DNA of 64,000 bases from Escherichia phage phAPEC8. A program made the position numbers and the translations under genes. The stretch lies in sequence record NC_020079.1. One strand, given 5' to 3'. Under the pieces are notes generated by a model. That model did not search any database. It was not told where the DNA came from and saw only the letters and a list, made by a program, of their open reading frames with translations. Positions 3 to 17,295 of this stretch are shown one piece after another. Numbering within the stretch: the stretch's first letter is position 1; each line of letters starts with the position of its first letter.

Positions 3-68
3 TCGAGCAATATTCCTGCACTTACTGTTTTGACAATGGCAAACATTAGTGTGGACGTTACCGAGTAA
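3..68 (+). CDS. 3' end of an upstream gene truncated by the window start
   Basis: Open frame from window edge to TAA at 66-68, followed by RBS AAGGGG and the ATG at 77. Confidence 0.3.
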   Translation, partial: SSNIPALTVLTMANISVDVTE

Positions 69-76
69 GGGGTAAA

Positions 77-2230
77 ATGAAACAAGCTATATTTACTGTC
101 ACGCGAGACAAGAGAGTAAATGCGAGTTCATTTAACTACACGACTGTTGATGGAACAGCAGTCGCTGGTAGAGATTATATTGCAAAATCGGGAACACTTG
201 TGTTCCCTGATGATGCTGATTCTGCTACCATTGTGGTTGAAGTATTTGAACGACCAAAGAACTCAATAGATCTTAACTTCTCCCTCCAAGTTTCAGGGAT
301 TAGTCAAAATAATATGATGGTTGAAACAACCATCAATTGTATTATAACTACTATCCAAGAAAATACTACTCCAATAACTTGGACTACAAAAGACGTTAAA
401 ATGTTCTCTCCTATGTATTGGACAATAGATTCTCAAGCAACGGAAAGTTGTTCTATTGTATCTCATGGAGACTCTTTTACTGCAAGATTTGTAAACAGAA
501 CAACAGCAGGTTTGGCAGGGGTTATCTGGAGCACAGTTGACAAATATGACCATAAAGGTGTTGGGTATTTACCCCACACAGATTTAAGTTCAGAGAAACT
601 TTGGTTTAAAATGGAAATTAGTCAAAACATGCCAGGTTTTAAAGAAGAACCTTTGGTGCCGACTTTGACTGTAACTCTCCTGGATAAAAGTGTTCATTAT
701 GTCAGTTTAGGATTCTACGCTTCAGATATTTCAGAAGATGGTAAAACAGCTACAATCAAGTTAGATTTTGGTAATATCTTTTCTGGCCCTAATAATGATA
801 TTCCTTTGGATATGAGTGCTGTAGATAATATTTTCTTCTCTTTGATTACAGCAAGGTATGAAGAAATAGAAGAGGTTGTACCTATTGACAGTCAAGAGGC
901 TTGGTTTACTTTCACTCTTCTTGAACCTACTTCTGGTTACAGTATGATGAAAGTCAGCAACCTTGTCCAGCCTGAACATGATATTCGCATGTGCACATCT
1001 TATGATGATATGTATAACCTGACTCCAGAGAGAGTTATTTATAATACATATGCACTAGGTTATCGTGGGATGATTAACCATTATAACGGAATGTCTCACT
1101 ATTATGAGTTCTCATGGAATGGAACATCTTGGGCTTTAAATAAATCTGTTTTCCTGAATCCGGCTACAGAAGCTTGGCTTAACAGCTTTCATTCTATAGC
1201 AAACGAGAAGGGCTACACAATAATGAACTCTTTAAGTTTTGAATTGATGAGCACAGTTTGTCCTGTAGAATGGGTCCAGCATGATTGGAACGATGCTCTT
1301 GCAGCAACAGGGTATAAACCTCCTAGTTATGTGTTGTCTCCAACTATTGACGAAGGTATGGAATATTTGCAAAATGTTATTAATAAAATAGCATCTATTT
1401 CTCAAGCTAACAATATTCCAGTCGTCATTCAAATTGGTGAACCTTGGTGGTGGTATAATACAGCAAGTAAAATGCCTTGCATATATGATTACACTACCAA
1501 ACTGGCATTCAACACAGAAACAGGTTTATTTGCACAAGATGCAGGAACAATAGATAATTATAAAACAGGAACGCCGTTTGACGAATACTATGCATTTTTG
1601 TCTCGTAAACTAGGATTAAGAGTTACAAAGTTTGCAACAGATCCCAGAGCAACTTACCCAGGAGCCAAGGTAACATTGCTTCCGTTCTTGCCATCAATTA
1701 TCGGCAACGGTTTGATGGAGAAAGTTAACTTTCCGTCTGATTACTACATTCCTGAAACTTTTGATTTTTACTGTTCAGAGTGTTACGACTGGCTTCTGGA
1801 AGGTAAAATGATGAAAGCATTCGATGCAATTACCATACCACATGAAAAATTAGGTTTTGAATATTCTGATATTCACTATCTTTCGGGTTTTGTTCCAGAT
1901 GCTACTCTTGCACCTTTGTATGGCTTCGATCCTGAATCAAACTACCGAACGTATCTTTGGAAAATGATTATAGGCAATATAGTATTGAACGCCAACAAGT
2001 TTGACGGACTTACACAATATATATGGGCCTATCCTCAAATAATGCACGATTCCATCACGGTAGTTAATTCTCAATCTCAAGTTTTCTATATGGGTAACGT
2101 GCCTTTGAACGTTTATTTACAGGATATCACTCTTAAACAGGTAAATGTTGAGATTGCCACCATAAGTGGAATTACATTAGCCACTAAATCTGGAGAAGAT
2201 TTGGTAACAACACAAAAATTTTATATATAG
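77..2230 (+). CDS. Large virion-associated protein with N-terminal Calx-beta-like domain (fibre/adhesin-like)
   Basis: 717 aa ORF; N-terminus FNYTTVDGTAVAGRDYIAKSGTLVFPDDADSATIVVEVF resembles Calx-beta motif; heads a run of fibre/spike genes. Confidence 0.45.
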   Translation: MKQAIFTVTRDKRVNASSFNYTTVDGTAVAGRDYIAKSGTLVFPDDADSATIVVEVFERPKNSIDLNFSLQVSGISQNNMMVETTINCIITTIQENTTPITWTTKDVKMFSPMYWTIDSQATESCSIVSHGDSFTARFVNRTTAGLAGVIWSTVDKYDHKGVGYLPHTDLSSEKLWFKMEISQNMPGFKEEPLVPTLTVTLLDKSVHYVSLGFYASDISEDGKTATIKLDFGNIFSGPNNDIPLDMSAVDNIFFSLITARYEEIEEVVPIDSQEAWFTFTLLEPTSGYSMMKVSNLVQPEHDIRMCTSYDDMYNLTPERVIYNTYALGYRGMINHYNGMSHYYEFSWNGTSWALNKSVFLNPATEAWLNSFHSIANEKGYTIMNSLSFELMSTVCPVEWVQHDWNDALAATGYKPPSYVLSPTIDEGMEYLQNVINKIASISQANNIPVVIQIGEPWWWYNTASKMPCIYDYTTKLAFNTETGLFAQDAGTIDNYKTGTPFDEYYAFLSRKLGLRVTKFATDPRATYPGAKVTLLPFLPSIIGNGLMEKVNFPSDYYIPETFDFYCSECYDWLLEGKMMKAFDAITIPHEKLGFEYSDIHYLSGFVPDATLAPLYGFDPESNYRTYLWKMIIGNIVLNANKFDGLTQYIWAYPQIMHDSITVVNSQSQVFYMGNVPLNVYLQDITLKQVNVEIATISGITLATKSGEDLVTTQKFYI

Positions 2231-2238
2231 GAGTAAAA

Positions 2239-5004
2239 ATGTCAACTACAATTACTAATTTACCCGAAACATCAAAAGTTAATGGTTCTGATTACCTGGT
2301 TTTAGATCAACCTGATAAGACTGTTAAAAGCACAGTTTCCAACTTTCTTACTGACACTGGGGTGGTTTTAGCCACCCAGCTAAAAGATACTTCTGGAGCT
2401 ACCAAGTATCCAGAACTTCAAATGTCACGTTGGAGAGATGAAGGTGATCCTAGAGGATGGGGAGCAGTAGGTGACGGAGCAACAGACGATACTAATGCCA
2501 TAACACAGCTTCTTGCTGCTATGCCTGATGGATGGATTGTTGATGGGCGTAATCTCACTTTCAAGGTTACAACACTACCAGATATAAGCAAGTTTAAAAA
2601 CGCTGCTTTTGTTTACGAGCGTATTGTTGGACAACCCCTTACTTACGTATCTGAGGGTTTCTTTGATGGAAATCTGACAAAAATTACGGATACACCATTT
2701 TACAATGCTTGGACGCAAGATAAGACGTTTGTTTATGACAATGTTATATATGCACCATTTATGGCTGGCGAACGTCATGGTGTACAAAACCTCCATGTAG
2801 CGTGGGTTAAATCAGGAGATGATGGACAAACTTGGTCTATGCCAGAATGGTTAACTCCAATTCATCCTGATTATAATGCCTCTTCAGCAAACAAAGTTAA
2901 CTATCATTGTATGAGTATGGGTGTATGTGGTAATCGCTTATATGCGGTGATCGAAACCCGTTACTTATCTAACATGCGATTGAAGAAAGCAGAACTTTGG
3001 TCACGTCCAATGCCTTATTATAGAAGGCCAACTGGAGGCATAACAATTAGTTCTGGGTCTACTACAGCGACAATTGTTTTAGAAAAGCATGGTCTTAAAG
3101 TTGGAGATGCTGTTAACTTTTCCAATTCAGGTGCAACTGGCGTATCTGGAAATATGACTGTTGCATCTGTAATTAACAAGGATACATTTACTGTTACATT
3201 AGCGAGTGCTGCCACATCTAATATAGATAATACAGGAACTACTTGGCATTTTGGAACACGTTTCTGGGATAGCCCTTGGGAAATTACAGAATTACCAGAT
3301 GTTGCCTATTCTACTAATGCAGATTTATGTGTTACAGAAACCCATAGTTTTACAGTTATAGATGATGATAATTACACTTTTGCTGTTGGTTATCACAATG
3401 GTGATGTTTCCCCAAGAAGATTAGGTATTTTGTATTTCAATAATGCTTACTCTGACCCAAGTTCTTTTACTCGTAGAACAATTAGTCAAGAATATGCTGA
3501 CAATGCAGCAGAACCCTGCATTAAATATTATGATGGAATTTTATATTTAACTACCAGGGGTACTTCAACTTCTGCTGCTGGTTCTACATTAGCAATGAGT
3601 ACCGACCTTGGAGAAAACTGGAACTACTTAAGATTCCCTAACAACGTTCATCATACAAACTTACCATTTGCAAAAGTTGGTAACTACCTTTATATCTTTG
3701 GTACAGAACGTTCATTCGGAGAATGGGAAGGAGAAGAACTAGATAATAGATATAAAGGCACGTATCCTCGAACGTTTATGTGCAAGATTAATGTATCTTC
3801 ATGGCCTACATCTTTATCCGATGTTCAATGGTTTAATATCACTGATCAGATGTATCAAGGGCATATTGTTAATTCTGCATGTGGTGTTGGTTCGGTATGT
3901 GTTAAAGATGGTTGGTTATATTATATCTTTGGAGGCGAAGATTTCTTATCTCCTTGGTCTATTGGGGATAATAGTAAAAAATTATGGTACAAGCATGATG
4001 GTCATCCAGCCGATTTATATAGTTATAGACTAAAGATTACCGAACATGATTTTGTATCACGTGATTTCAAATATGGAGCTACGCCAAACCGTACATTGCC
4101 TGTATCTATGGGTACAGATGGGGTAAGGCATGTCTCAGCCCCTGTAACTTTTGATAATGATGTACAAGTATACTCTTTAACAGTTACTGGCCTTGAGCAT
4201 GATGGGACACAACAATCTGCCGTTAGAATAAAATTAGATGGTGATTATGGGGTTGTTGCAAAAAATGTCCCAATAAAAAATCCTTCTAAACAGCGACTAA
4301 TCCTATGTGGAGGAGAAACTCCTTACGTTACTGATGGATCGCTATTACAACTATATGGTTCAAACCATACGTATCCAAACAGAGCAGTTTTATATGCCCC
4401 AGGAGGAGCATATACCCAAAATAATTTCATGCCGTATTTAGATGGACAAGTTGCATTAGGCGGTGCGTCTAACAGATGGTCAGAAGTGTACGCATCTACA
4501 GGAACCATTAATACTTCAGATGGAACATTAAAAACTAAACCTACAGAGATTGAAGATATTTTACTGAAAGCATGGGAAGATATTCATGTAATCTCTTACC
4601 AATGGCTTAGTGCTGTCGCGGAGAAAGGAGATTCTGCGCGTATTCATTTTGGTGTTATAGCTCAAGATGTAAGAGATATTCTGATTAATTATGGCTTAAT
4701 GGATGAAAATAGCACTGATTGTAAGTATGCTTTTCTGTGTTATGATGAATACCCTGCTATGTACGATAGTGTTGTTACGGGACAAAAAGAAATCCCTTTA
4801 TTTGATGATGAAGGGAATGTTGTAATTGATGAAGAAGGTAATCCAGTAACAATCGTAGAAGATGTTGTAGAAACTATCGAAATAATTCCAGCAGGATCGC
4901 GATGGGGTATCCGCGCTGACCAAATGTTTTTTATTGAGATGGCTTATCAACGTAAAAAGTTAAAAGCTCTTGAAGAAAGACTTGCAACCCTGGAAAGTAA
5001 ATAA
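2239..5004 (+). CDS. Tailspike/tail fibre with C-terminal intramolecular chaperone (peptidase S74-like) domain
   Basis: 921 aa; C-terminus TSDGTLKTK...ARIHFGVIAQDVRDIL...FFIEMAYQRKKLKALEERLATLESK matches the self-cleaving chaperone domain of endosialidase-type tailspikes and L-shaped fibres. Confidence 0.65.
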   Translation: MSTTITNLPETSKVNGSDYLVLDQPDKTVKSTVSNFLTDTGVVLATQLKDTSGATKYPELQMSRWRDEGDPRGWGAVGDGATDDTNAITQLLAAMPDGWIVDGRNLTFKVTTLPDISKFKNAAFVYERIVGQPLTYVSEGFFDGNLTKITDTPFYNAWTQDKTFVYDNVIYAPFMAGERHGVQNLHVAWVKSGDDGQTWSMPEWLTPIHPDYNASSANKVNYHCMSMGVCGNRLYAVIETRYLSNMRLKKAELWSRPMPYYRRPTGGITISSGSTTATIVLEKHGLKVGDAVNFSNSGATGVSGNMTVASVINKDTFTVTLASAATSNIDNTGTTWHFGTRFWDSPWEITELPDVAYSTNADLCVTETHSFTVIDDDNYTFAVGYHNGDVSPRRLGILYFNNAYSDPSSFTRRTISQEYADNAAEPCIKYYDGILYLTTRGTSTSAAGSTLAMSTDLGENWNYLRFPNNVHHTNLPFAKVGNYLYIFGTERSFGEWEGEELDNRYKGTYPRTFMCKINVSSWPTSLSDVQWFNITDQMYQGHIVNSACGVGSVCVKDGWLYYIFGGEDFLSPWSIGDNSKKLWYKHDGHPADLYSYRLKITEHDFVSRDFKYGATPNRTLPVSMGTDGVRHVSAPVTFDNDVQVYSLTVTGLEHDGTQQSAVRIKLDGDYGVVAKNVPIKNPSKQRLILCGGETPYVTDGSLLQLYGSNHTYPNRAVLYAPGGAYTQNNFMPYLDGQVALGGASNRWSEVYASTGTINTSDGTLKTKPTEIEDILLKAWEDIHVISYQWLSAVAEKGDSARIHFGVIAQDVRDILINYGLMDENSTDCKYAFLCYDEYPAMYDSVVTGQKEIPLFDDEGNVVIDEEGNPVTIVEDVVETIEIIPAGSRWGIRADQMFFIEMAYQRKKLKALEERLATLESK

Positions 5005-5052
5005 TACAGCTTAGGTGGTATTTCAATCTTTATATCCCACTTAGAGGTACTC

Positions 5053-5316
5053 ATGGCTAAAGAGAAAAATGGTTTTAAAAAATTTATTCGCGGAATGTTC
5101 TGCACTTACCCCGGCAACGGGGTAAGCTCTACGAAAGTCTGGAACGCTGTAGGCATGTCTGTTATGACAGGCATGTTTATCTTTTTAGGAATAGAAAAAG
5201 AAATTCCTGAATGGATGGGCTGGGCTTTTGTTTTCATGATAACCCCTTCTCGCCTCATGAAAAATCTTATTGATTTACGTTGGGGCAGATCACAATCTAC
5301 CAAAGAGGATGACTAA
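5053..5316 (+). CDS. Small membrane protein
   Basis: 87 aa with hydrophobic segments (MSVMTGMFIFLGI, WMGWAFVFMITP); RBS present; sits inside the structural operon. Confidence 0.35.
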   Translation: MAKEKNGFKKFIRGMFCTYPGNGVSSTKVWNAVGMSVMTGMFIFLGIEKEIPEWMGWAFVFMITPSRLMKNLIDLRWGRSQSTKEDD

Positions 5317-6803
5317 TGGACGAATATGGTTTGACAGATGCGGGATTTGTAATCCCGACTTTTGACGATGTTTTAAACAACTACATGACAGCAGTAAAAA
5401 ACACATTTGGTGCAGATGCAGCCACTTCGGAAGACACTGTGATCGGGCAACTGTTTAGAATAATTGCATACACAGATTACACATTGTGGGAAGGTATGCA
5501 AGGTGTTTATAATACTCAAACACTGGATGGTGCAGAAGGTATTTATCTTGACGAAATCTTTTCTAAACGCGGTTTCTATCGAGCAGGGGCAGCAGCAAGT
5601 ACAGGTTATGCATATGTTAAGAGCAATAACAAAGCAGCTTGGACTTATGAGCTAGGCACGGATATTTACTTCAACTCTGATAGTGATATGAACTACTATG
5701 TTAGCACACCAACTATGTTGAATGCTAAGATTGCAGCTTATCAAATCTCTTGTGCTAATGCAACTGCTACAGGTGTTCCAAATATTACTTTTTATGCACA
5801 AAGTGCGGTAGATGGAGGACTAAACAGTAAAACACTTGCACCTGGTTCTTCTACATTTATAACCGATCTTGAAACTTTTATCAAGGCAAATTTAACAGAA
5901 GCTGATCGTAGTCTTGTATTTTCTGATTCAGGTAACTTATCAATTGGTTTTACTTCTTTAACTAGTGATACTCCAGTGGGACTGGTAACTCCTATTAAAT
6001 TTTATGCTAGTGTTCCGGTTGGAACCAAGTGGAGTGAGATTCCGGTAGTTGCAGCAGAGAAAGGATACAACCCTGTTGGCGTGGAGTCTATTACAGGGAT
6101 ATCTTCTACCTTTACAGGTTATCTTGACAGTGGTAACTTTTATTCATTTTCTCCTGGTCGGGATGTTGAGACAGACGCAGAATTCCGCTCTCGTTTCAAT
6201 GACAACGTTGATGAAGCTAACGCAGGGACACGAGCAGCTATTGTGAAAGCTCTGCTACTTACAGATGGTGTTACTAAGGTGAAGATTTATGATAACCCTA
6301 CATTACATGATCAAGAACATGCTCCGGCTATGACTTTCCAGACTATAGTTTATGGAGGAAGTGCTGAAGAAGTTGCTGAAGTTATTTACAAAACTAAACC
6401 AATCAACAGTTTGACACATGGAACAACCAACATAACTGTTACAACGGAAGACGGAGGACAAGAAATTATTCGTTTTTCTCCTGGTGCTTCTGCTACGTAT
6501 TCCGTAAAACTTGTTTATCAAACTGTCAACGGAACAACTTTAAGTGGAACAGAAAAACAAAACATTGTAGAAGCTTTACAAAACCTGCAAGCTTACTTTG
6601 AATTAGGTTCTTCAGTAACGAACGATCAAATCAAAGGTGTTATTTATGCAGCACTTGCTTTTGGACGCTTGACTTCTCTTCGTGTTTATGTTAAACTTAA
6701 TACTGAGGATGACAGTAAATATACAGAGAATAATATAGTTCCTGCTTATAATGTTGTCCCTTCTTTTGACCTTGATAACATTTCTTACGAGTATGGAGTG
6801 TAA
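5316..6803 (+). CDS. Baseplate J-like (baseplate wedge) protein
   Basis: 495 aa; position and N-terminus consistent with the J/gp47-like family; followed by I-like, fibre and assembly-like genes in the canonical J-I-H-G order. Confidence 0.4.
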   Translation: MDEYGLTDAGFVIPTFDDVLNNYMTAVKNTFGADAATSEDTVIGQLFRIIAYTDYTLWEGMQGVYNTQTLDGAEGIYLDEIFSKRGFYRAGAAASTGYAYVKSNNKAAWTYELGTDIYFNSDSDMNYYVSTPTMLNAKIAAYQISCANATATGVPNITFYAQSAVDGGLNSKTLAPGSSTFITDLETFIKANLTEADRSLVFSDSGNLSIGFTSLTSDTPVGLVTPIKFYASVPVGTKWSEIPVVAAEKGYNPVGVESITGISSTFTGYLDSGNFYSFSPGRDVETDAEFRSRFNDNVDEANAGTRAAIVKALLLTDGVTKVKIYDNPTLHDQEHAPAMTFQTIVYGGSAEEVAEVIYKTKPINSLTHGTTNITVTTEDGGQEIIRFSPGASATYSVKLVYQTVNGTTLSGTEKQNIVEALQNLQAYFELGSSVTNDQIKGVIYAALAFGRLTSLRVYVKLNTEDDSKYTENNIVPAYNVVPSFDLDNISYEYGV

Positions 6804-6805
6804 AA

Positions 6806-7435
6806 ATGGCAGTGAGTGTTGACCATGTAACAACTTGGGCCAGTATCAATGAAGACGTTAAAAACCTTCTGATTGAAGATTTTAAATCTTCTCCTAACAT
6901 TGTCAAGCTCCTCTACATCGTATCCAGTGAAAAGCAAAAGATAGATCAGGCAATGATCTATCTTGCTAAACACCGCTTGATCTCCACAGCCACAGGCAAA
7001 TACCTAGATATCTTAGGAGAAGAAATGGGGATCGAACGTAATGGCTCTGATGATGAAGAGTATAGAACAATATTAAAAATCAGGGCTTACCGCGTAGCCT
7101 CATCGGGGACTCGTGGTGACATAATTGATATCTTCGCCCGTTTCACAGGAACAGAGCGTGAAACGCTTAATACTTACGTAGGTTTGAATAAAACCTTTGA
7201 TGTGTTTTTCTACAACCTGTGTCTTCAATCTGATCAAGCTTTAGAGCAGTTGCTAAGTGTTTTCCCTATTATTAGTAGCTACCGTCTTGGAGCAAAAGCA
7301 GGATCAGCTTTTGGTTTTAGTTCTTATTATGCTACCAAACCGCCTCATGGTATTGGTGGTTTAGGTTCCCTGTACATGGAATCTACTGGGGATGAAACAG
7401 GACGCATGTGTACGCTTCTCAAGCAAATAGATTAA
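6806..7435 (+). CDS. Baseplate/tail protein (P2 gpI / DUF2313-like)
   Basis: 209 aa; synteny after the J-like gene; tight coupling. Confidence 0.35.
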   Translation: MAVSVDHVTTWASINEDVKNLLIEDFKSSPNIVKLLYIVSSEKQKIDQAMIYLAKHRLISTATGKYLDILGEEMGIERNGSDDEEYRTILKIRAYRVASSGTRGDIIDIFARFTGTERETLNTYVGLNKTFDVFFYNLCLQSDQALEQLLSVFPIISSYRLGAKAGSAFGFSSYYATKPPHGIGGLGSLYMESTGDETGRMCTLLKQID

Positions 7436-7444
7436 GGAGTTTAA

Positions 7445-8506
7445 ATGGCGAAGCCAATATATTATCCTGACTGGGCTACACAAACTGTAACGCTCCCAGG
7501 AACTTTAAACACAAACAAAATTAGACCTAAAGAAACCATCCGCACAATTGGTATGGATTATGGTCAAATCATGACTTGCGAAGAGATGAACTGGATTCTT
7601 AATAATATCGGTTTATGGATTCGCTATTTGGTGGATGATTTTCTTCCAACTTTACCTAATACCTACTTGCCTTTAGTGGGAACTAAGATTACAATGGCAG
7701 GTGATGCTACTGGTGAGGCCACTTGGAACGGTAACAAAGAAGTTACTTTATCTATCCAAGTTCAAGATAACAGTCATAATCACTTGTCAGCAAACATTAC
7801 AGATGCTACTAGTTCAACAGTAACACCAAACGTGTTGGTAAAACGTGATGCGGGTGGTGCTATTTATGGTGGCGATGTTTATGTTAACGGTACTTCCACA
7901 ACAGATCCTGCAACACTGTTCTTCAAAAACTTTGCAGGACAAACAAATGGTGAGATTTCTGCCGAGTATCAAAGCGGAGGTCAGCTTTACATCTATCGTA
8001 GAAATCCTAGCACAGGTAGTGTATCGGCAGGTGTTCGTTTATATGATGCAGGTTATGTTCTAATAGATAATCCAAGATCGAACAGTGGACAAGATACTTC
8101 TAACGGAAATGCTTTAGTTCGTTTAGATTATCTGAACTCTCGTTTGACTTCCCTTCAGAACACATTGCAGACGAATATTAACACTGTTCAAAACAACTTG
8201 AATAATGTTAACAACAACCTCTCTTCTCGTATAAACAATGTAGAAAGTAATCATCAAAGTCAGATTACAAATAACTACAACTATGCTAACGGAACCTTTG
8301 TAAGAGATATTCGTTATACTAGCCAAGGTGTGTATTATCCACCAGGGAACGAGGTTTCTTGGACTTATATCTGTTCTTCTGGTTATGTTCTTTCTGGTAT
8401 TATCGTACAGGAAACAGGACGTAGCTCTGCGGATAACATCGGTGGGGTTTACTTCAAACGCCTCCAGCGCAACGTTAACGGAAACTGGTACGATATTGGA
8501 GGCTAA
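7445..8506 (+). CDS. Tail fibre protein (coiled-coil shaft)
   Basis: 353 aa; heptad-like N/Q/L-rich stretch LNSRLTSLQNTLQTNINTVQNNLNNVNNNLSSRINNVESN. Confidence 0.5.
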   Translation: MAKPIYYPDWATQTVTLPGTLNTNKIRPKETIRTIGMDYGQIMTCEEMNWILNNIGLWIRYLVDDFLPTLPNTYLPLVGTKITMAGDATGEATWNGNKEVTLSIQVQDNSHNHLSANITDATSSTVTPNVLVKRDAGGAIYGGDVYVNGTSTTDPATLFFKNFAGQTNGEISAEYQSGGQLYIYRRNPSTGSVSAGVRLYDAGYVLIDNPRSNSGQDTSNGNALVRLDYLNSRLTSLQNTLQTNINTVQNNLNNVNNNLSSRINNVESNHQSQITNNYNYANGTFVRDIRYTSQGVYYPPGNEVSWTYICSSGYVLSGIIVQETGRSSADNIGGVYFKRLQRNVNGNWYDIGG

Positions 8507-9052
8507 ATGATATTTACAAACTTTAAAAAATATATTCCTGAAGACCCTGAACTAAAAGAATTGGTAGAAGCAGAGAACATTCTTTTTCTTCGTTGCGATC
8601 AAGGTTACGACTGGTATGATTTACGTAGCACAGAATTCAATAACGATAAAATGAAAGTCGTTTTTGATGATCAAAATCGTATTGTGTTTTGGAATACTGA
8701 TCCTACACTACTTTGCCCTGAAGATCTTTCTATAGCACAAGTAGATTTTAATATAGATACTTTTGAGGATATTAGGAACAAGGTTCTGGATTTAGAAACC
8801 TTAACTCTTAAGGATAAAGAGTATTCCCGTGAAGAGTTGATGACACAAGCTAGTGCAAAAATTCGCTCTTTACAAGAAACAGCGGTAGCACTTATAACAC
8901 CTTTACAGTATGCTAAAGATTTAGAAATGGCTACTGAAGACGAATTAGCTTATCTTAAAAATCTTCAAGTTTATGTAGTTAAACTAAATCGTGTTCCGCT
9001 TCAAAAAGACTATCCTTACGCTATAGATTGGCCTACATTACCGACAGAATAA
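8507..9052 (+). CDS. Possible tail fibre assembly/chaperone protein
   Basis: 181 aa ORF start-overlapping the fibre gene stop (ATGA); size and position typical of Tfa-like chaperones. Confidence 0.3.
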   Translation: MIFTNFKKYIPEDPELKELVEAENILFLRCDQGYDWYDLRSTEFNNDKMKVVFDDQNRIVFWNTDPTLLCPEDLSIAQVDFNIDTFEDIRNKVLDLETLTLKDKEYSREELMTQASAKIRSLQETAVALITPLQYAKDLEMATEDELAYLKNLQVYVVKLNRVPLQKDYPYAIDWPTLPTE

Positions 9053-9061
9053 GGGATCACT

Positions 9062-9397
9062 ATGGAATTTCAAGAAGCATGGGGACTTGCAAAGGATGCA
9101 ATAATCCCTTTAATCGGAGTCATCTGGTTCTTTTTCAAACAAAAAATGGATAAATTCGGCTCTGATCTTGAGGAAATGGAGGAGAAAAGTCGAGAGCTAG
9201 AGAAGAAGTTGGTCTTTGTTGAATCAACTTACGCAACTAAAGCCGAACTTACCCAGATGCTAAATCAAATTAACTCTACATTAATGGCAAATAACAACAC
9301 CCTTGAGCAAAAAATTGAAAAGATTATGGACCTCAAGAATGCGACTATCCAAATGATGCTAGATGACATAGTTAAACGTACACAGAATAAGGGGTAA
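9062..9397 (+). CDS. Small membrane-anchored coiled-coil protein
   Basis: 111 aa; N-terminal hydrophobic helix (IIPLIGVIWFFF) then charged coiled-coil. Confidence 0.35.
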   Translation: MEFQEAWGLAKDAIIPLIGVIWFFFKQKMDKFGSDLEEMEEKSRELEKKLVFVESTYATKAELTQMLNQINSTLMANNNTLEQKIEKIMDLKNATIQMMLDDIVKRTQNKG

Positions 9398-9400
9398 TTA

Positions 9401-12400
9401 ATGGCAACATTCCCAACATATCCAGCAACGTCTCTCGAACAGGGCGTAGACCTGGTTATTTTCTCATCTAACCAACTCCATGATGTTATTAATGGAAGTG
9501 CTACAGAGAGTATTGAAACAGAATCAGGGTTGATACCAACCCTGAGAAAAGCCCTTGTTGACAACTTTTTCTTTAAAAGTCCATTAGATTGGGCGCAAGG
9601 CACAAACGAAACAGTTTTTAACCAACTTCGTTATTTCCAGAACGGGGTGTTGAGTGGTTATTACTATGCGCCTAACGCTACACTGGTAAACCCAATTCCT
9701 ATGCAAGGGACTCCAGTAGGAGATAACAACTGGGTATTGTGGGGACTGAAGACAGAACAACTAGCAACAGAAGTCACCCCTTGGGTATATTCTGGTGCAA
9801 CTGGTTATGAAACAGTAATCAGTCCTCCCTACATCTTTGATAGTGCTATTGTTACGATCAATGGTGTTATTCAGGTTCTGGGAGAAGCTTTCCGCATAGA
9901 AGATAGTAAAATCATCTTATCTGAACCTTTGGGACACGATCCTGCAACAGGACTGCCAAACAAACTTTTTGCCTATATTGGTAAAATCGTAGCTTCCGCA
10001 GATACAGATCCTAACTTAGAAAACCGTCTTGTCAGTTTAGAAACAAAAACTGAAGAACTGACAGAAAGCATGGATAAAGTACCTTTACAAACTATTGCTC
10101 GTAAATACGGTTTGTTGGATGATGAAGTAGCTTACGCAACAGCGGGTCAATCGTTAACAGGGATTAAAGCTCTGTATGATCCAGTAGCACAATCTTCCTA
10201 CACATTGCCTCCTAACATCACAGGGACTTTAACATCCTTGTCTGTTTCTGGAGTAATGACTTATTCTGGCGGATCTGTAGATCTTTCTGCATTGGCTGTT
10301 GAACGTGGACAGTTTGTTCATTTGCCTACAAGCTTTGGTAATAACGTAACTCTGACAGCTAAAAATCAGACGATTGGACGTGGTGCTGGTCGTTATCGTT
10401 GGGCTGGGAGTTTACCAAAAAGTATTTTGGCCTCAGATACATTGGAGACAAGCGGTGGATTAGGTCCAAATGCATGGGTTCTGACCAATACAGAAGGACT
10501 GTTAACCCCTCGTGGTGGAACATACAACGATTTATTCGATGTTGTCTACTTATCAGAATTTGCTAACAACACAACAACATATACCACACCAGAAGCAGCT
10601 TTCCAAGCGGCACTGTTAGCAGCAAAAGCTTCGAAAAGCAAGATTCTCGATGCTTACGGTTGCGATATGACTTTCACGACAAGCTCTTTTGATATTCAAG
10701 GTATCACTTTGCGTGGGGGTGTGTTCCGTGGTCAACGCGACTATCGTGTGCAAAATGCTACAGTAGAAGGCACAACTTTCCGTAACTCTCGTGTTATGTA
10801 TTGGGGTGGTGCTGTGCGCATGTTCGATTGTTTGTGGGACGGTGCTCCTCGCGCAGGTCAAGTTGGTAGCTTGGTATTCCAAGGCAACCCAATATCAGGT
10901 ACTTTTGAAATTGATAACTGTACTTTTAAAAACGGGTTGTATGGCATCCTTCAACAAGGAACAGGGGAACCAGTAACACGTGGTGTCTTCCGTAACCTTA
11001 CCTTCATGGACATGCAAGGTGATGCAATAGAACTGAACGTCATCAATAAACATTATGACGATGGTTGTGTGATTGAGAATATTTACCTGTCTAATATCGA
11101 TGGGACTAACGCTCCTATTCCTCTGTCCAACTGGGGTATCGGTATCGGTGTAGCTGGTAAAGGACCATATGGTTACGGAATCCCTGATGATCAATATTGC
11201 AAGAATATTACAATTCGTAACGTTTTTGCAAAACGTTGTCGTCAGATTGTCCACGTAGAAGTTGGTCGTAATATCTCTATCGAAAACATTCATGGCGATC
11301 CAGACCAGACCGTATCTGTTGGGACAGGTTTGGCAACTGGCGCAGTTGTAATGTATGGAAGTAAAGATTTTACGATTGACGGTGTTTACGGAGAGCCTAA
11401 AACAGACGGTAGCACACTTGCAAGTAATATCCGTATGATTTATTTGGAGTGGGGAACTAACGCAGTTCTGGACGAAGAGGGTAATCCGGTAGTTCCGGCA
11501 CAGGGTAGACCTTCAAACCCATGCTTTAACTATTCTGTTCGTAATATTCACACCAAAACTGGGCGTGTTTTTGCAGGAGTTTCCGCTGGGCCAGGTTATG
11601 AAAACAGAGTTAGCTTTGAAAATATTCGTTGCGCTGCATTGCAGTTATTCGGTATAGCTTCTTGGCTTTCAATGTCTAACATCACCTGTAATATCTTCGA
11701 TTGTGTTGGTCAACCTGAATCTGGTCCAGGGACATTTTATGATGGATTCTTCCGTAGAGAAAAATCTGTTCTTGAAATGGTTAACGTGAACTGTTACCCA
11801 GATGGCAAGACGATGGTTACTGGTCGTCCACAGTGGAGCCGTTGCCGTTACTCGGATATTCATCGTGTCAATTGTAATGTTGAAGCTAATATGTATACCA
11901 ATATCGCAGGTGGTATTGGAGCTATTGTAGGGACAACGGGCAAAGTTTATTACTTAGAGCCTAATCCTAGTCGAAACATTGATGGAATGCATTTCCCAAC
12001 AGGGAAAGAGTTTGACAAAGGTGATATGATAGTCAAGGCGGATAATACGTTCTTCCTTGTAACAACAAGTGGGGCATATATTCCAGATATCCCAGCTTTC
12101 GGTATTCGAGCTACACAGGCAGGAGATACCTTCCTGACACAGAACTTGACTCCTAACGGGACAGCAACAAATGCTTCTTGGTTGTATCATTACCCTCTGT
12201 CAGCAGGGACACGTATCCGTATTCCTGGCGCTGGTGTAGGTGGAGCAGATTTGGACACAGTTATTACTCGTGCACCTTATCAAGATAATGATACGTGGAC
12301 TAACCCAGTTAAAATAGACATTGCAGATCCAATTGTAACGCCTACAAGTGCTGGAGTTAGAATTAAAACCATACCTAATGATTCCAGTAATGTTTCTGTA

Positions 12401-12454
12401 GGTAATACTGCGGTTATTCGCCCAACGCCAGTAGTAGATGTGCCAACAACCTAA
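9401..12454 (+). CDS. Tailspike with probable right-handed beta-helix (depolymerase-like) domain
   Basis: 1017 aa; central region with repeated short beta-strand/turn units rich in N, G, I/V (NIYLSNIDGTN, NITIRNVFAKR, NISIENIHGD) typical of pectate-lyase-fold tailspikes. Confidence 0.5.
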   Translation: MATFPTYPATSLEQGVDLVIFSSNQLHDVINGSATESIETESGLIPTLRKALVDNFFFKSPLDWAQGTNETVFNQLRYFQNGVLSGYYYAPNATLVNPIPMQGTPVGDNNWVLWGLKTEQLATEVTPWVYSGATGYETVISPPYIFDSAIVTINGVIQVLGEAFRIEDSKIILSEPLGHDPATGLPNKLFAYIGKIVASADTDPNLENRLVSLETKTEELTESMDKVPLQTIARKYGLLDDEVAYATAGQSLTGIKALYDPVAQSSYTLPPNITGTLTSLSVSGVMTYSGGSVDLSALAVERGQFVHLPTSFGNNVTLTAKNQTIGRGAGRYRWAGSLPKSILASDTLETSGGLGPNAWVLTNTEGLLTPRGGTYNDLFDVVYLSEFANNTTTYTTPEAAFQAALLAAKASKSKILDAYGCDMTFTTSSFDIQGITLRGGVFRGQRDYRVQNATVEGTTFRNSRVMYWGGAVRMFDCLWDGAPRAGQVGSLVFQGNPISGTFEIDNCTFKNGLYGILQQGTGEPVTRGVFRNLTFMDMQGDAIELNVINKHYDDGCVIENIYLSNIDGTNAPIPLSNWGIGIGVAGKGPYGYGIPDDQYCKNITIRNVFAKRCRQIVHVEVGRNISIENIHGDPDQTVSVGTGLATGAVVMYGSKDFTIDGVYGEPKTDGSTLASNIRMIYLEWGTNAVLDEEGNPVVPAQGRPSNPCFNYSVRNIHTKTGRVFAGVSAGPGYENRVSFENIRCAALQLFGIASWLSMSNITCNIFDCVGQPESGPGTFYDGFFRREKSVLEMVNVNCYPDGKTMVTGRPQWSRCRYSDIHRVNCNVEANMYTNIAGGIGAIVGTTGKVYYLEPNPSRNIDGMHFPTGKEFDKGDMIVKADNTFFLVTTSGAYIPDIPAFGIRATQAGDTFLTQNLTPNGTATNASWLYHYPLSAGTRIRIPGAGVGGADLDTVITRAPYQDNDTWTNPVKIDIADPIVTPTSAGVRIKTIPNDSSNVSVGNTAVIRPTPVVDVPTT

Positions 12455-12460
12455 TGGAAT

Positions 12461-12480
12461 AGAGGGGGGATTCCCCCTCT
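12461..12480 (+). terminator. Hairpin after tailspike gene
   Basis: AGAGGGGG-GATT-CCCCCTCT perfect 8 bp stem; weak U-tract. Confidence 0.35.
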
Positions 12481-12516
12481 TCTTCCAATAGAATGGTCTA
12501 ATGATAGGAGAGATAA

Positions 12517-14541
12517 ATGAATTTAACAAGACCTAATAGTGCGATAGCCGATCTGGTAGAAGCTACTTATCGAAAACGTCGCAGCTTTGAGGCAGGTTTT
12601 ACATTACGTAATTCCCGTGAAGTTTTGCTGTTAGCAGCAGAAGGGAATTATTACCAATGGAAAGGAACTTTTCCTAAAGTTGTTCCAGCAAACTCTACGC
12701 CAGCCACCACAGGTGGTATTTCTTCCCTTGCATGGCAAAGTGTTGGGACCGCTGATGATATAGCAATTATCAATGCCAAGTTTACGGCAATGCAGCAACA
12801 GATTGATGATCTGTCGGAAACAATACCTGAAGCTGGTAAATCGGCTTATCAGATCGCACTTGATAATGGTTTTGTTGGAACAGAAGCACAATGGCTTGCT
12901 TCTTTGAAAGGGGATACTGGTGCTCAACTTAATATTAAAGGATCATTAGCAAGCACTAGTGAACTACCATCCACAGGTAACGTTGCAGGGGATGGTTATA
13001 TCGTAGGTGATGTAATCTACGCTTGGGATGGTTCTGTTTGGAAACTTATTTCTTCTCTTGGGCCAGAAGGTAAATCAGCTTACGAGGTATGGTTGGCAGA
13101 TGGTAATACAGGATCTGTTTATGATTTTCTTACCTCTATAAAAGGTGATAAAGGTGATGTTGGTCCTACAGGGCCACAGGGAGCACCTGGTGTTAACGCC
13201 AACGGTTTTGATTATCGTGGGGATTTGCCTTCTACAAGTAACTTACCACAACCTAACTCTGAAAACGTAAGCCAAGCTTATTCTATCAATGGTAATCTTT
13301 ATGTCTCTAATGGGACAGCTTGGGTCAACATGGGTAATATTGTTGGTCCTCAAGGTCCACAAGGTGAGGCAGGTAAAGACGGTCTTGATGGAACAGATGG
13401 AGATGAAGGGAAATCTGCATATCAAAGTTGGCTGGATGCTGGTAATGAAGGGACAGAAGTAGATTTTATTGCCTCACTTAAAGGTCCAAAAGGAGACAAG
13501 GGTGATCAAGGAGAGCGAGGTCCACAAGGTGAACTAGGTCCACAAGGACCAGTGGGTGCAACAGGATCAGGCTTAGAGATTATCGGGGTTCTGAACAGTG
13601 AAGCTGAACTTCCTCCTACTGGAGAAGTAGGTGATGCATATAAAATTAATAATGATTTGTATGTTTGGATTCAAGATGCTACGGAATGGATGAATGTTGG
13701 CAGTCTTGGAGGAACATCAATTACAGCTAAAGGTCATGTTCCGAACAGTGAAGCTCTCCCTGTTTATAATAACTATGGCGATGCCTACTTAACTGAAGAC
13801 ACCAGTAATCTTTACATCTATACCTACGATCAAGACACCAATTCCGCATCTTTTGTTGACATGGGAAGTATTAAAGGCGACAAAGGTGAAAAAGGGGATA
13901 AAGGGGATAAGGGTGATCCTGGAACAAATGGAACCAACGGTACTGATGGGACCAACGGTAAGGACGGCGCACAGTGGTTTGTAGCAACAACTAATCCAGT
14001 CGCAGGAGACGGTGTTATCAATGATTACGCCTTCAATACTACCACTGGAGCAGTGTTTAAGAAAACAGATTCTTCTACGTGGACACTTATAGGAACTCTT
14101 CCTAGTATACCAGAAGCCCCTCAAGACGGCTTGACGTATGGTCGTTCTGATGGAAACTGGATCGAAATATCAGGATCAGATCCTACAGAAGCTATAACAC
14201 CAACTAGAGTTACAGCAGGTTTCATGGAACTTGAAACAACTACTGCCAACTCTGGAGCATCTTGGACTCCTTCTGGAACTTCCAATATGTATGTTGTTAC
14301 AGTAACTGATGCTCTGACAGTTGGAGCATGGCCTGGTGTCACTGGCTCTACAAAACCTAAAGCGTTTTCAGCAATGATTTATTTGATTCAAGATACAACG
14401 GGACACACGGTTACACTAGATGCGTCTTATGGAGCACTAAATGATACAGAAATAGCAACTACTGCTAACGCAGTAACAATTTTGCAATTAACGTATCCTG
14501 GTGTGGGTGATATCGTGGACATGGTTGTTGTAACACGATAA
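12517..14541 (+). CDS. Collagen-like repeat tail fibre protein
   Basis: 674 aa with several Gly-X-Y runs (GDKGDVGPTGPQGAPG; GPQGPQGEAGKDGLDGTDGDEG; GPKGDKGDQGERGPQGELGPQGPVGATG; GDKGEKGDKGDKGDPGTNGTNGTDGTNGKDG). Confidence 0.65.
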   Translation: MNLTRPNSAIADLVEATYRKRRSFEAGFTLRNSREVLLLAAEGNYYQWKGTFPKVVPANSTPATTGGISSLAWQSVGTADDIAIINAKFTAMQQQIDDLSETIPEAGKSAYQIALDNGFVGTEAQWLASLKGDTGAQLNIKGSLASTSELPSTGNVAGDGYIVGDVIYAWDGSVWKLISSLGPEGKSAYEVWLADGNTGSVYDFLTSIKGDKGDVGPTGPQGAPGVNANGFDYRGDLPSTSNLPQPNSENVSQAYSINGNLYVSNGTAWVNMGNIVGPQGPQGEAGKDGLDGTDGDEGKSAYQSWLDAGNEGTEVDFIASLKGPKGDKGDQGERGPQGELGPQGPVGATGSGLEIIGVLNSEAELPPTGEVGDAYKINNDLYVWIQDATEWMNVGSLGGTSITAKGHVPNSEALPVYNNYGDAYLTEDTSNLYIYTYDQDTNSASFVDMGSIKGDKGEKGDKGDKGDPGTNGTNGTDGTNGKDGAQWFVATTNPVAGDGVINDYAFNTTTGAVFKKTDSSTWTLIGTLPSIPEAPQDGLTYGRSDGNWIEISGSDPTEAITPTRVTAGFMELETTTANSGASWTPSGTSNMYVVTVTDALTVGAWPGVTGSTKPKAFSAMIYLIQDTTGHTVTLDASYGALNDTEIATTANAVTILQLTYPGVGDIVDMVVVTR

Positions 14542-14544
14542 CAG

Positions 14545-14569
14545 AAGCCCCGAAAGGGGCTTTCTTTTT
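14545..14569 (+). terminator. Rho-independent terminator
   Basis: AAGCCCC-GAAA-GGGGCTT followed by TCTTTTT, directly after the fibre stop. Confidence 0.6.
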
Positions 14570-14582
14570 ATGGAGGGTTTAA

Positions 14583-17258
14583 ATGTTTCCAATTCCAATA
14601 TTTACTATTATGACCAGCACTGGTGTCGTTCCTCTGCCAGCAGGTATTGTTAAAAAAGTAATCACTTTAGATTACCCAGATAATGCTGGTAATTCTAACA
14701 GCAGTTTAGCAATTTTGCTTAATGATGGTAGATTGTTTACTCAAGGCGCAAACCTTTTTGGTGAGATTGCAGATGGAACTCGTAGTGCACGATTCAATAA
14801 TTTCCACTTAGCTTCTACTGTAGTAGCGGATGTGTTTACCGCAGATCGTTGTTTTGTTATTAAAACTAACAGTGGGGGATGGCAATATTCAGGATTGACA
14901 GCAGGATTGGTAGGATCTATAGCAGCAGGTGGTACGGACGCATGTGTAACTACTTGGACCAGCTTTCCATCTGTAATAACAGGGACTATCTCTTTAGCCA
15001 ATCTTAAAGAGGTTAAGGGAGGATATAACAACACTCTCTGGTTAATGAATAGTGGTGTTCTTTACGGATCTGGTCAAAACACAGTAGGCAGTTTAGGTGC
15101 AAGTACTACTAACGAAGTTTCTACTCCTCGTCAGATAACAAGTGCAGCAGTTGCTTTTGATGCAGGTTACAACCAATGCTCTTATGTCAACAATGTGGGA
15201 ACCTTGCGTGTTTGTGGAGCTAGTAAAGGTTTAGCAGGTAATAATAACACAACAACAGCTTTTGTCAATGCCAAGATATCCGCTACTGAAACAGTGTATG
15301 TCAAAGATTACATCAATACAGTTTCCCAGACAATAGTTGTAGGAGATACCTCCGGTGGCACGGGTGCAGTAAACTACTTATATGTTAGATCTAATACAGA
15401 AACAACCTACACTAAACTGGATACCTTTGCAGCAGGTTTCTCAACATGGAAATTTCCACCAAGCCGCCACTCTTTTTTCGTTGGGATCAATAATTCCTTG
15501 TGGGCTATTGGTAAGAACTACACTGCAAACTTAGGTTTGGGGTATGATTCTGCGAGCGGAGATCCACTTCAAGTGGGAAAACCAGTTAAACCTGAAGGAG
15601 TGGGTTCCTGGGATATAAACAAGCTCACAAGCGTTCATACGCTGAATATGGATGTTACTAACCAATTAGGTTATCAAGGAACCTTTTTCGTTTATAATGG
15701 AGATATGTATTATTCCGGTATTTGGAAAGATGGAAAAGCCTCGTATCTGTTCAATAGTGGTCTAAACTATAATAAATTCACACCAATAGCAAGCTCCGTG
15801 ATTACGGGTGATATTCTGGCAACTGGCTTAACTACGGATTCTTTAGGAATTTGTATTGTAGGTGGAACTAAACAGTTGACACATTCTGTTAGCCCAGAAG
15901 GAGGTAAACTTTTCAATATTAAATATACTTCTTCTGCCCCTGCAAACATGACAATATCGTCTACTGGTTTAATGACTTTCCATGCAGAAGGTGGTTTTGA
16001 TGCAGGTATGACAGCCTTAAACGCTGAAGGAACAACTTTATCAGATACCTCTGGAGGATATGCTTCAACATTGAGTGTTTACACCCCTAGCTTATCTGCG
16101 ATGGATGTAGGAACAACACAAACAATGGTAGCAGAAATAACGCCAACAGGAGCAGCAAGCTTACCTGGCATGGTTGTTGAGTATTTCTCTAATGACCCTA
16201 CGGTAGCAACAGTTGACCCCGTTACAGGCGTTATTACAGCGGTTGCTGATGGAGGTTGTCGTATCGGTTGTAGAGCAACTTATCAAGGTGTGGTAACTGC
16301 CGAAGATAGTTCTTATCTCACAGTGAATGCTGTGGTGATTGTGATGGATTATGATTTGACGCAAGAAACTATTCCGGCGGATGTAAAGGTCAACAGGAGT
16401 AACCGTTATGCCAGGGCTTCTGGAGATATCCTTGTACCTACAGAGAGTTCTGCTCCCGTAGCACCTTTAGAATATGTTGGTACAACTCCACAAGGTAGAC
16501 GTGTTGTAGCAGCCAACCGTACACATATCTTTATCAACAATAACTTGACAACAGCTTCCCCGTGGTTGAAGACGAACTTGACAGTCACAGCATCAACAAT
16601 CAACTCTCCGGTTGGAACTACGGCTAACACTTACAAGTTAACACCTTCTACAACTTCAGGACAACATATTTTATCAGCAGTGAATACAGCTTCTGATATT
16701 ACAGCAGGTAAGCACTGGGCGGCATCCGTATTCTTGAAGCCAGATGGGATCACTAAAGTGAAACTCAAATTGACTTCAGGAGATGAGATTAACGAAGGGA
16801 CTTATGATCTTGTAGCTGGAACATTTACAGGTGCAGATGCAAACATAATCGATATGGGGAATGGTTGGTATCGTGTAATTCTACACAAAGTGACAGTTGC
16901 CAAACAAGCATCTATAACCTATGAGATTATAGCTTTGAATGCAAGTGGATCAGACACTTTCGCAGGAGATGGTACGGCAGGTCTTATTGCTTGGGTTCCA
17001 CAGCTTGAGATGGGGGATATGACAAATCCAGTTTGGGCGGGGACACCATTTGTTTGTTCTTATGCACGAGACACTACCAGTGCTGTTACCTTCACTATTC
17101 CTAAGAATGGACATACTGGCGTGGACATTTACCACACTGATGGTACTGTGCAACGAGAGGTCTTCACTGGTACAGCTACAACTTGGATGTTGACGTTCAC
17201 CGCCGCAAGTGCGGATTGGGGATCGAAGTTCATTACAGGTTTGAAATATTACGACTAA
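14583..17258 (+). CDS. Large virion protein with bacterial Ig-like domain(s)
   Basis: 891 aa; T/S/G-rich; segment MVVEYFSNDPTVATVDPVTGVITAVADGGCRIGCRATYQGVVTAEDSSYLTVNAV resembles a Big_2-type Ig-like fold. Confidence 0.45.
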   Translation: MFPIPIFTIMTSTGVVPLPAGIVKKVITLDYPDNAGNSNSSLAILLNDGRLFTQGANLFGEIADGTRSARFNNFHLASTVVADVFTADRCFVIKTNSGGWQYSGLTAGLVGSIAAGGTDACVTTWTSFPSVITGTISLANLKEVKGGYNNTLWLMNSGVLYGSGQNTVGSLGASTTNEVSTPRQITSAAVAFDAGYNQCSYVNNVGTLRVCGASKGLAGNNNTTTAFVNAKISATETVYVKDYINTVSQTIVVGDTSGGTGAVNYLYVRSNTETTYTKLDTFAAGFSTWKFPPSRHSFFVGINNSLWAIGKNYTANLGLGYDSASGDPLQVGKPVKPEGVGSWDINKLTSVHTLNMDVTNQLGYQGTFFVYNGDMYYSGIWKDGKASYLFNSGLNYNKFTPIASSVITGDILATGLTTDSLGICIVGGTKQLTHSVSPEGGKLFNIKYTSSAPANMTISSTGLMTFHAEGGFDAGMTALNAEGTTLSDTSGGYASTLSVYTPSLSAMDVGTTQTMVAEITPTGAASLPGMVVEYFSNDPTVATVDPVTGVITAVADGGCRIGCRATYQGVVTAEDSSYLTVNAVVIVMDYDLTQETIPADVKVNRSNRYARASGDILVPTESSAPVAPLEYVGTTPQGRRVVAANRTHIFINNNLTTASPWLKTNLTVTASTINSPVGTTANTYKLTPSTTSGQHILSAVNTASDITAGKHWAASVFLKPDGITKVKLKLTSGDEINEGTYDLVAGTFTGADANIIDMGNGWYRVILHKVTVAKQASITYEIIALNASGSDTFAGDGTAGLIAWVPQLEMGDMTNPVWAGTPFVCSYARDTTSAVTFTIPKNGHTGVDIYHTDGTVQREVFTGTATTWMLTFTAASADWGSKFITGLKYYD

Positions 17259-17261
17259 TAA

Positions 17262-17295
17262 AAAAGGGAACCCGCAAAGGTTCCCTTTTCTTTTA
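17262..17295. terminator. Bidirectional intrinsic terminator between convergent modules
   Basis: AAAAGGGAACC-CGCAAA-GGTTCCCTTTT flanked by A-run and T-run; lies between the last + strand structural gene and the first - strand gene. Confidence 0.6.

Follow-up and report, generated by a model that had tools for sequence, protein, structure and literature searches.

The probable phi92-type adsorption locus of Escherichia phage phAPEC8: gene content, exchange points and a conserved spike junction

Positions 77-17258 of a 64,000-nucleotide (nt) stretch of the Escherichia phage phAPEC8 genome (NC_020079.1; the whole stretch is called the window) hold eleven tightly packed open reading frames (ORFs), all on the + strand, five of which are large (717, 921, 1017, 674 and 891 amino acids (aa)). 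Window 1-17289 is very probably the distal part of the late tail operon, with genes for the outer baseplate and for a multivalent adsorption apparatus of the phi92 type. The evidence includes a gene-for-gene correspondence with phi92, seen in the phi92 annotation and in a tblastn search with every window ORF. The order of gp141-gp152 is the same throughout: gp141-like fibre, gp142-like protein, spike slot, membrane protein, two wedges, short fibre, chaperone, small protein, beta-helix spike, collagen fibre and Ig-like protein.

Gene content of the late tail region

The features of the locus, with the matches that identify them (E, expectation value), are as follows.

1-68, + strand: 3' end of the upstream 958-aa tail-fibre gene, phi92 gp141 counterpart (end of ASO2A_171; position 3068 of that locus is window 68)
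77-2230, + strand: 717-aa protein, phi92 gp142 counterpart (77% aa identity; Pfam domains)
2127-2390, + strand: conserved 264-nt junction unit (79 phage records, at least 95% nt identity)
2239-5004, + strand: 921-aa endosialidase tailspike, phi92 gp143/endoN92 counterpart (Pfam, PDB, 96.9% aa identity)
about 4516-5004, + strand: C-terminal self-cleaving chaperone domain of the endosialidase, from residue 760 (Peptidase_S74, 760-819)
5053-5316, + strand: 87-aa small membrane protein, phi92 gp144 counterpart (83%; phrog_1322 'membrane protein', E = 3e-26)
5316-6803, + strand: 495-aa gpJ-like baseplate wedge, phi92 gp145 counterpart (80%; Pfam Baseplate_J; phrog_6, E = 2e-42)
6806-7435, + strand: 209-aa baseplate protein, phi92 gp146 counterpart (87%; Pfam DUF2612; phrog_4056, E = 7e-81)
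7445-8506, + strand: 353-aa short tail fibre, phi92 gp147 counterpart (phrog_4465 tail fibre, E = 4e-108)
8507-9052, + strand: 181-aa tail-fibre assembly chaperone (Pfam Caudo_TAP, E = 3e-13; phrog_136)
9062-9397, + strand: 111-aa small protein, counterpart of the phi92 gp149 'lipoprotein' (76%; phrog_15210, E = 4e-70)
9401-12454, + strand: 1017-aa beta-helix tailspike, phi92 gp150 counterpart (PDB 6e0v; Pfam Tail_spike_N)
12517-14541, + strand: 674-aa collagen-repeat fibre, phi92 gp151 counterpart (60%; Tail_spike_N and Collagen)
14544-14563, + strand: GC hairpin with T run, terminator-like, after the collagen fibre gene (an ASO2A terminator is annotated at the same place)
14583-17258, + strand: 891-aa protein (Pfam WD40_RLD, RCC1 and Big_2, E = 6e-10)
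17262-17289, no strand assigned: strong hairpin with T runs and an 11-pair stem, at the convergence with leftward replication genes (ASO2A terminators are annotated on both strands)

A nucleotide search with window 1-17300 returned 33 records covering at least 80% of the query. The closest relative quoted here, phage vB_EcoM_ASO2A, is 98.3% identical across the full length; PNJ1809-36, MirsaeidiM_Esher1, ESCO5, REC and others are 97-98% identical over the span, and nepoznato 96.0%. By these matches the window can be assigned to a Phapecoctavirus genome (subfamily Stephanstirmvirinae), that of a phAPEC8/ESCO5-type E. coli phage. The same genes are already annotated in ASO2A and ESCO5, under names such as tail fiber, non-contractile tail sheath, endo-N-acetylneuraminidase, baseplate wedge subunit, tail fiber assembly protein and colanic acid degradation. 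The locus is real but ordinary: the multi-receptor apparatus has been published for the subfamily and the endosialidase for ESCO5. Novelty is low because published work describes the apparatus and 98%-identical phages in GenBank carry the same annotated genes. The additions made here are small, namely the cassette boundaries, the conserved junction unit, the neck domains inserted into the beta-helix spike and the domain architecture of the 891-aa protein.

An earlier note, made from the letters alone, had named six proteins in one module with at least five large fibre or spike genes. All six lie on the + strand where it placed them, with domain matches far beyond chance: a Calx-beta-headed protein (717 aa), a tailspike with a self-cleaving chaperone (921 aa), a coiled-coil fibre (353 aa), a beta-helix tailspike (1017 aa), a collagen-repeat fibre (674 aa) and an Ig-like protein (891 aa). 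The count of five large genes holds as well. The coiled coil of the 353-aa protein is present, but this protein is not large and is the short tail fibre. The fibre and spike genes do lie together, but the 'module' also contains two wedge genes, a chaperone gene and two small membrane protein genes, and the left edge of the window truncates it, since the 958-aa tail-fibre gene of ASO2A stops at about window 68.

Spikes, fibres, baseplate proteins and flanking DNA

The 921-aa protein has the endosialidase architecture of an N-terminal extension, a six-bladed beta-propeller with an inserted beta-barrel, and a stalk. Pfam detects End_N_terminal, End_beta_propel (E = 4e-213), End_beta_barrel, End_tail_spike and Peptidase_S74, the four endosialidase domains being above their cut-offs, and two Asp-boxes are present. 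Residues 75-759 match the phi92 endosialidase structure (PDB 4hiz) with 1573 bits; the K1F endoNF structures (3gvl/1v0e) are matched at E = 1e-236 and the chaperone-domain structure 3gw6 at E = 2e-70. The Ser-Lys dyad of the chaperone cleavage site is found in the motif S760-D-G-T-L-K765, which coincides with the annotated mature-peptide boundary of phi92. With 96.9% identity to phi92 endoN92, the protein would be expected to cleave alpha-2,8 / alpha-2,9 polysialic acid.

Nucleotide identity to phi92 is 0.67-0.84 along the 717-aa gene, rises to 0.93-0.99 across 2177-5026, and is ~0.8 thereafter. This jump indicates that the endosialidase is a swapped-in cassette, shared recently between two genera, Phapecoctavirus and Justusliebigvirus. 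The full endosialidase is present in 12 records only. UP17 carries a different, 688-aa spike and ECO340P1 a 536-aa spike, both beginning with the same ~50 residues as the endosialidase, and ev052 has no spike gene at the endosialidase position. ESCO5 and REC were reported to have a depolymerase with 96% identity to the endoN of phi92, the gp143 slot of other members being either vacant or occupied by something else (PMC10269720). Just 3' of the 536-aa spike of ECO340P1 (L007:7354-7634) lies a non-coding remnant of the endosialidase chaperone domain, in which residues 824-863 are recognizable at 83% identity and residues 867-921 at 98%. This remnant is the scar of a former endosialidase that has since been overwritten.

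The 264-nt junction at the left of the cassette spans the end of the 717-aa gene (34 codons), the ribosome-binding region between the two genes and the start of the spike gene (50 codons, encoding the N-terminal anchor). It was found in 79 phage records of both genera (full length in 78), all at or above 95% nt identity; for comparison, the upstream 717-aa protein is present at 60% aa identity or more in 121 records. The DNA flanking the junction is only ~70-84% identical between the genera. The junction and the spike gene are both absent from three inspected phages, ev052 and Schickermooser (Phapecoctavirus) and muut (Justusliebigvirus). In spike-less phages the upstream protein has a short form of 687-691 aa ending '...YLQDTVYA' or '...YLQDTVYVSS', whereas phages with any spike have a long form, '...YLQDITLKQVNV...KFYI'. 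In the predicted structure of the 717-aa protein, residues 686-697 are helical and the remaining tail, 698-717, is disordered. The first codons of the 87-aa gene (5053-5316), on the other side, also vary with the presence or absence of the cassette. We tentatively propose that the last 34 residues of the 717-aa protein and the first 50 of the spike may form a portable 'socket and plug' on one 264-nt unit, so that the spike would travel with its own docking site. Alternatively, the unit is simply a conserved recombination handle. If the proposal is true, a single recombination event would install or remove a whole receptor-binding arm, and the 717-aa protein would be the carrying adaptor.

The 717-aa protein is laid out as a Calx-beta head (Pfam Calx-beta, residues 4-82, E = 8e-11), a beta-sandwich, a glycoside-hydrolase-like TIM barrel and a C-terminal tail. 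Its NCTSP_N and TIM-barrel_NCTSP domains (the latter at E = 3e-78) place it in the N4 Gp64/Gp65 family. The family is very large (5742 clusters at E of 1e-3 or below, 246 at 1e-30 or below), and the core (~100-685) is often embedded within proteins of 1000-2000 aa or more. Among 47 diverse members of the TIM-barrel family the acidic residues E389, D310, D311, E455, D563 and E568 are invariant or nearly so, which suggests an active or binding site. The BASEL paper aligned N4 Gp64 with the conserved fibre of Vequintavirinae and relatives, proposed this fibre, to which the 717-aa protein is homologous, as their common binder of a wecB-dependent glycan, enterobacterial common antigen (ECA), and labelled the JeffSchatz homologue a 'lateral tail fiber with glycosidase and deacetylase domains'. 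The name 'tail sheath' found in some annotations was rejected because it was taken over from N4 Gp65, and the domains present are a Calx-beta head and a sugar-hydrolase-like barrel.

The 1017-aa tailspike consists of an N-terminal anchor (1-215), tandem 'Tail_spike_N'-type necks (~226-372) and a colanidase-like right-handed beta-helix (~426-1000). The helix matches PDB 6e0v, phi92 gp150, at E = 1e-79 over 426-1000, and the protein as a whole matches phrog_6117 at E = 1e-282. For residues 226-372 the PDB matches are the N-terminal necks of CBA120 TSP1/3/4 and G7C gp63.1 (E = 1e-26 to 1e-30), with Tail_spike_N itself (PF18668) at 302-361. Similarity of residues 502-662 to E. coli WcaM (E = 1e-25) is far below the curated cut-off, and degradation of colanic acid by this protein is putative, given the partial likeness to WcaM. 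Identity to phi92 gp150 is 75% over 1-215 and 33% over 455-1007, and residues 216-454 have no tblastn counterpart. These ~240 residues contain the Tail_spike_N-type necks, which are extra relative to phi92 gp150; a Pfam search found no Tail_spike_N in gp150.

The 674-aa fibre has Tail_spike_N at its extreme N-terminus (12-77, E = 1e-19), four Gly-X-Y runs (Pfam Collagen, E = 3e-12) and a C-terminal part (559-671) that matches the phiTE long tail fibre 9cuy_g. It also carries three copies of a repeat of ~40 residues starting 'GKSAY...', at residues 107, 185 and 298; in copies 2 and 3 a Gly-X-Y run starts no more than ~30 residues from the motif. PHROG matches show that the repeat is common to many other phage fibres.

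The 891-aa protein begins with a seven-bladed RCC1-like propeller (~20-410), continues with two Ig-like domains (~410-583) and ends in an exchangeable C-terminal third (585-891; window 16335-17258). The AlphaFold2 model contains a confident propeller, for which Foldseek returned the UVR8 and HERC2 propellers (target TM score ~0.69), two confident Ig-like domains, a low-confidence linker and a moderate-confidence beta-sandwich. A fibre- or spike-like trimeric fold is not seen in the model. Within the C-terminal third, the gene transfer agent (GTA) head-spike-fibre domain NF048003 was detected at 644-814 (73.7 bits against a cut-off of 36). The C-terminal part also matches PDB 6tb9 (E = 6e-14), in a region where model confidence is moderate. 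The family is small, with only 38 database clusters, most of them on contigs of ~100-157 kb; its members are conserved over the N-terminal two-thirds, and unrelated modules take the place of the C-terminal third. The ESCO5 and nepoznato alleles diverge after residue 584, and phi92 gp152 (202 aa) matches at 62% over residues 411-587 only, the Ig-like part. The protein thus looks like a modular adhesin.

The short tail fibre (353 aa) has an Asn/Leu-rich coiled-coil shaft and an exchangeable C-terminal tip, of which residues 286-353 match the phiTE short tail fibre 9cuy_c (E = 7e-23). Identity to phi92 gp147 is 75% over residues 1-267 only, and to nepoznato 92% over 1-283 only. The adjoining 181-aa chaperone has no tblastn match to phi92 gp148 at 1e-5 and is 26% identical to the nepoznato allele. 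In both nepoznato and phi92 the tip has thus been exchanged along with the chaperone, the arrangement of a P2/Mu-type fibre with a gpU/Tfa chaperone; the BASEL paper relates the locus to Mu GpS/GpU. In the phiTE structure (9cuy) the fibre N-termini are attached to wedge proteins. The 111-aa protein has an N-terminal hydrophobic helix, is coiled-coil-like in the rest and is a predicted membrane protein. Both it and the 87-aa membrane protein are conserved in phi92, and counterparts of gp144 also occur in PVP-SE1-like phages according to the phi92 annotation.

Within the genus the 717-, 1017- and 674-aa proteins are 94-100% identical. There are three variable places: the spike body, the short-fibre tip with its chaperone (nepoznato), and the C-terminal third of the 891-aa protein.

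GC skew is positive across the span and changes sign near 17.3 kb, where the rightward late genes converge on leftward genes for a family-A DNA polymerase, a primase-helicase and, by RefSeq annotation, a single-stranded DNA-binding protein (SSB). The hairpin at 17262-17289 is likely a two-way terminator closing the late operon. Terminator-like sites are modestly enriched (18, with 10.8 expected), two of them convincing; a promoter-like scan gave 48 sites against 47.5 in shuffled sequence, a signal not above the shuffles. ARAGORN found no tRNA gene and Rfam no family at gathering score in window 1-64000. Papers give 10-14 tRNA genes for phages of this group, and any tRNA cluster must therefore lie outside the window.

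The neighbouring DNA polymerase (865 aa, 19887-22484, - strand) aligns to phi92 gp159 in two blocks, between which ~730 nt of phi92 (L003:27187-27920) have no match. A split of the polymerase relative to phi92 was ruled out; phi92 has an extra segment instead, an insertion absent here and possibly a mobile element. Four 'Campylobacter phage' records (MG065650, MG065654, MG065662 and MG065682) match this E. coli phage group and rV5-like coliphages. One of them, B15, is 98% identical in nucleotides at the junction, and the others hit the rV5-like counterpart of the 717-aa protein. Probably the hosts are mislabelled, or else the preparations were mixed.

Adsorption model and alternatives

Gene content, homology, predicted folds and the exchange pattern underlie the following model; placement in the virion, catalytic activities, receptor choice and the sequence of steps are inferred. 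The two wedge proteins (495 and 209 aa) would form a platform. The short tail fibre, folded with the help of the 181-aa chaperone, would be the final, trigger-type receptor binder, recognizing the outer core of lipopolysaccharide (LPS); published genetics on relatives point to the LPS outer core, and the BASEL paper covers both wecB dependence and the LPS core. Several peripheral proteins would handle surface sugars. The endosialidase spike, its C-terminal chaperone released at Ser760 after trimerization, would cut the K1/K92 polysialic-acid capsule. The peripheral set would also include the colanidase-related beta-helix spike, the collagen-repeat fibre, the 717-aa protein with its sugar-hydrolase-like, N4 Gp64-related TIM barrel (an ECA binder on the BASEL proposal), and the 891-aa protein, with its propeller, two Ig-like domains and a GTA-spike-fibre domain in the swappable C-terminal third. 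Swaps of three parts would tune host range: the spike body, which follows an unchanging anchor of 50 residues; the short-fibre tip with its chaperone; and the C-terminal third of the 891-aa protein.

The earlier note had concluded that several independent receptor-binding proteins imply a branched, multivalent machine, possibly with more than one depolymerase. The correspondence with phi92 gp142-gp152 and published descriptions agree with this. The BASEL paper describes three co-expressed lateral fibre sets visualized by cryo-EM on phi92, a second paper speaks of 'a branched structure of RBPs' (receptor-binding proteins) in BME3 and phi92 (PMC12210895), and four fibre sets and two spikes are given for Phapecoctavirus (PMC10844046). 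'Branched' is supported here by analogy with these phages. For the depolymerases, the identity of the endosialidase to that of phi92 and the homology of the beta-helix to colanidase gp150, and in part to WcaM, point to more than one.

Several points weigh against so full a set of receptor binders. The presence of these proteins in the virion of this phage is something we infer. The virion proteome summary of rV5 has the fibre proteins gp30, 32, 33, 41 and 43, and gp34, the counterpart of the 717-aa protein, is not among them. Catalysis by the TIM barrel of the 717-aa protein is putative. The substrate of the 1017-aa spike is uncertain because its identity to gp150 is 33% and the WcaM match falls below the cut-off. 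The 891-aa protein may not be a receptor binder, because its model has no trimeric fibre- or spike-like fold and phi92 has a counterpart for the Ig-like part only.

One alternative, rather unlikely in our judgement though not lightly dismissed, is that not all of the large proteins truly bind receptors. In that case the 717-aa protein would mainly be a structural adaptor with a dead TIM barrel that holds the spike, and the 891-aa protein a non-essential decoration, sticking weakly to glycans or mucus, or not a virion protein; the number of genes would overstate the multivalency of the machine. In N4 the related Gp64/Gp65 are part of a structural sheath that surrounds the tail with six-fold symmetry, and the spike cassette is always accompanied by the C-terminal tail of the 717-aa gene. 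The near-invariance of the 717-, 1017- and 674-aa proteins in the genus is, moreover, unlike that of typical host-range determinants, the 891-aa protein is modelled as a monomer in which propeller and Ig-like domains follow one another, and phi92 gp152 is merely a 202-aa Ig-like protein. A dead barrel fits poorly, however, with acidic residues conserved across the 47 diverse family members, and in the BASEL genetics a wecB-dependent glycan is linked to the conserved fibre. Like receptor-binding modules, the C-terminal third of the 891-aa protein is swapped among close relatives, and it includes a domain known from the RcGTA head spike fibre.

It is very improbable that the depolymerase-like proteins are mainly free enzymes, released at lysis to strip capsule or biofilm around plaques. 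Soluble forms of phage depolymerases do exist, and searching the literature for virion proteomics of Phapecoctavirus brought up nothing but unrelated papers. However, every one of the genes is embedded in the late baseplate operon, among the wedge genes; the alternative spikes have the same fixed N-terminal anchor as the endosialidase, of a kind typical for attachment to particles; and Tail_spike_N neck domains are present.

The phi92-type multivalent apparatus is the reading retained here. In practice the locus can serve as a map for engineering host range in a broad-host-range therapeutic phage group, with three natural exchange points, and it also offers a candidate adaptor-and-spike docking unit. 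Its structural study would be useful rather than surprising.

Comparison with known systems

With the branched tailspike complexes of Ackermannviridae (CBA120 TSP1-4) and of G7C (gp63.1/gp66), the 1017-aa spike (226-372) and the 674-aa fibre (12-77) share a Tail_spike_N/TD1-type neck, the matches being to CBA120 TSP1, TSP3 and TSP4 and to G7C gp63.1. In CBA120, Tail_spike_N-type domains dock onto T4 gp10-like XD domains, and in Ackermannviridae and G7C these docking domains define the branching, whereas Pfam, PHROG and PDB sequence searches detected none in any window ORF, distant folds of the 1017-aa N-terminus and of the gp141 counterpart not having been searched. A CBA120-style branch, with the 674-aa fibre docked on the 1017-aa spike through Tail_spike_N, was rejected as unproven because XD domains are undetected and the same domain is an internal neck in the alternative UP17 spike. 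Ackermannviridae have one tsp cluster, while the spikes here are interleaved with wedge genes.

N4 is a podophage, whereas the particle here is that of a contractile-tailed phage with a baseplate, annotated as a myovirus. Gp64/Gp65 of N4 (PDB 9lc0, 9yf4) are two parts, which in the 717-aa protein are fused in one chain with a Calx-beta head. They form a sheath; for the 717-aa protein 'NCTSP' is a family label only. The podophage endosialidases of K1F (endoNF), K1E and K1-5 have the GH58-type architecture and the chaperone domain in common with the 921-aa protein. The K1-specific podophage enzymes have another N-terminal anchor, and their DNA matches the cassette in short patches at 73-79%.

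The closest described system is that of phi92 (Justusliebigvirus; Schwarzer et al. 2012, J Virol 86:10384, as cited by later papers), of the same subfamily and with the same gene order; it was for phi92 that this 'Swiss-army-knife' set of host-recognition proteins was first described. Identity is 96.9% for the endosialidase, 80-87% for the wedges, 77% for gp142 and 60% for gp151. The beta-helix body of gp150 is 33% identical and lacks the ~240-residue neck insertion of the 1017-aa spike, the short-fibre tip and chaperone are different alleles from those of the window, and gp152 is a 202-aa Ig-like protein, as against a propeller, Ig-like domains and a swappable C-terminal third here. Within the genus, ASO2A, PNJ1809-36, ESCO5, REC and nepoznato have every gene of the span, present and annotated; in ESCO5 and nepoznato the 891-aa protein ends in a different C-terminal third, and nepoznato has a different short-fibre tip and chaperone as well.

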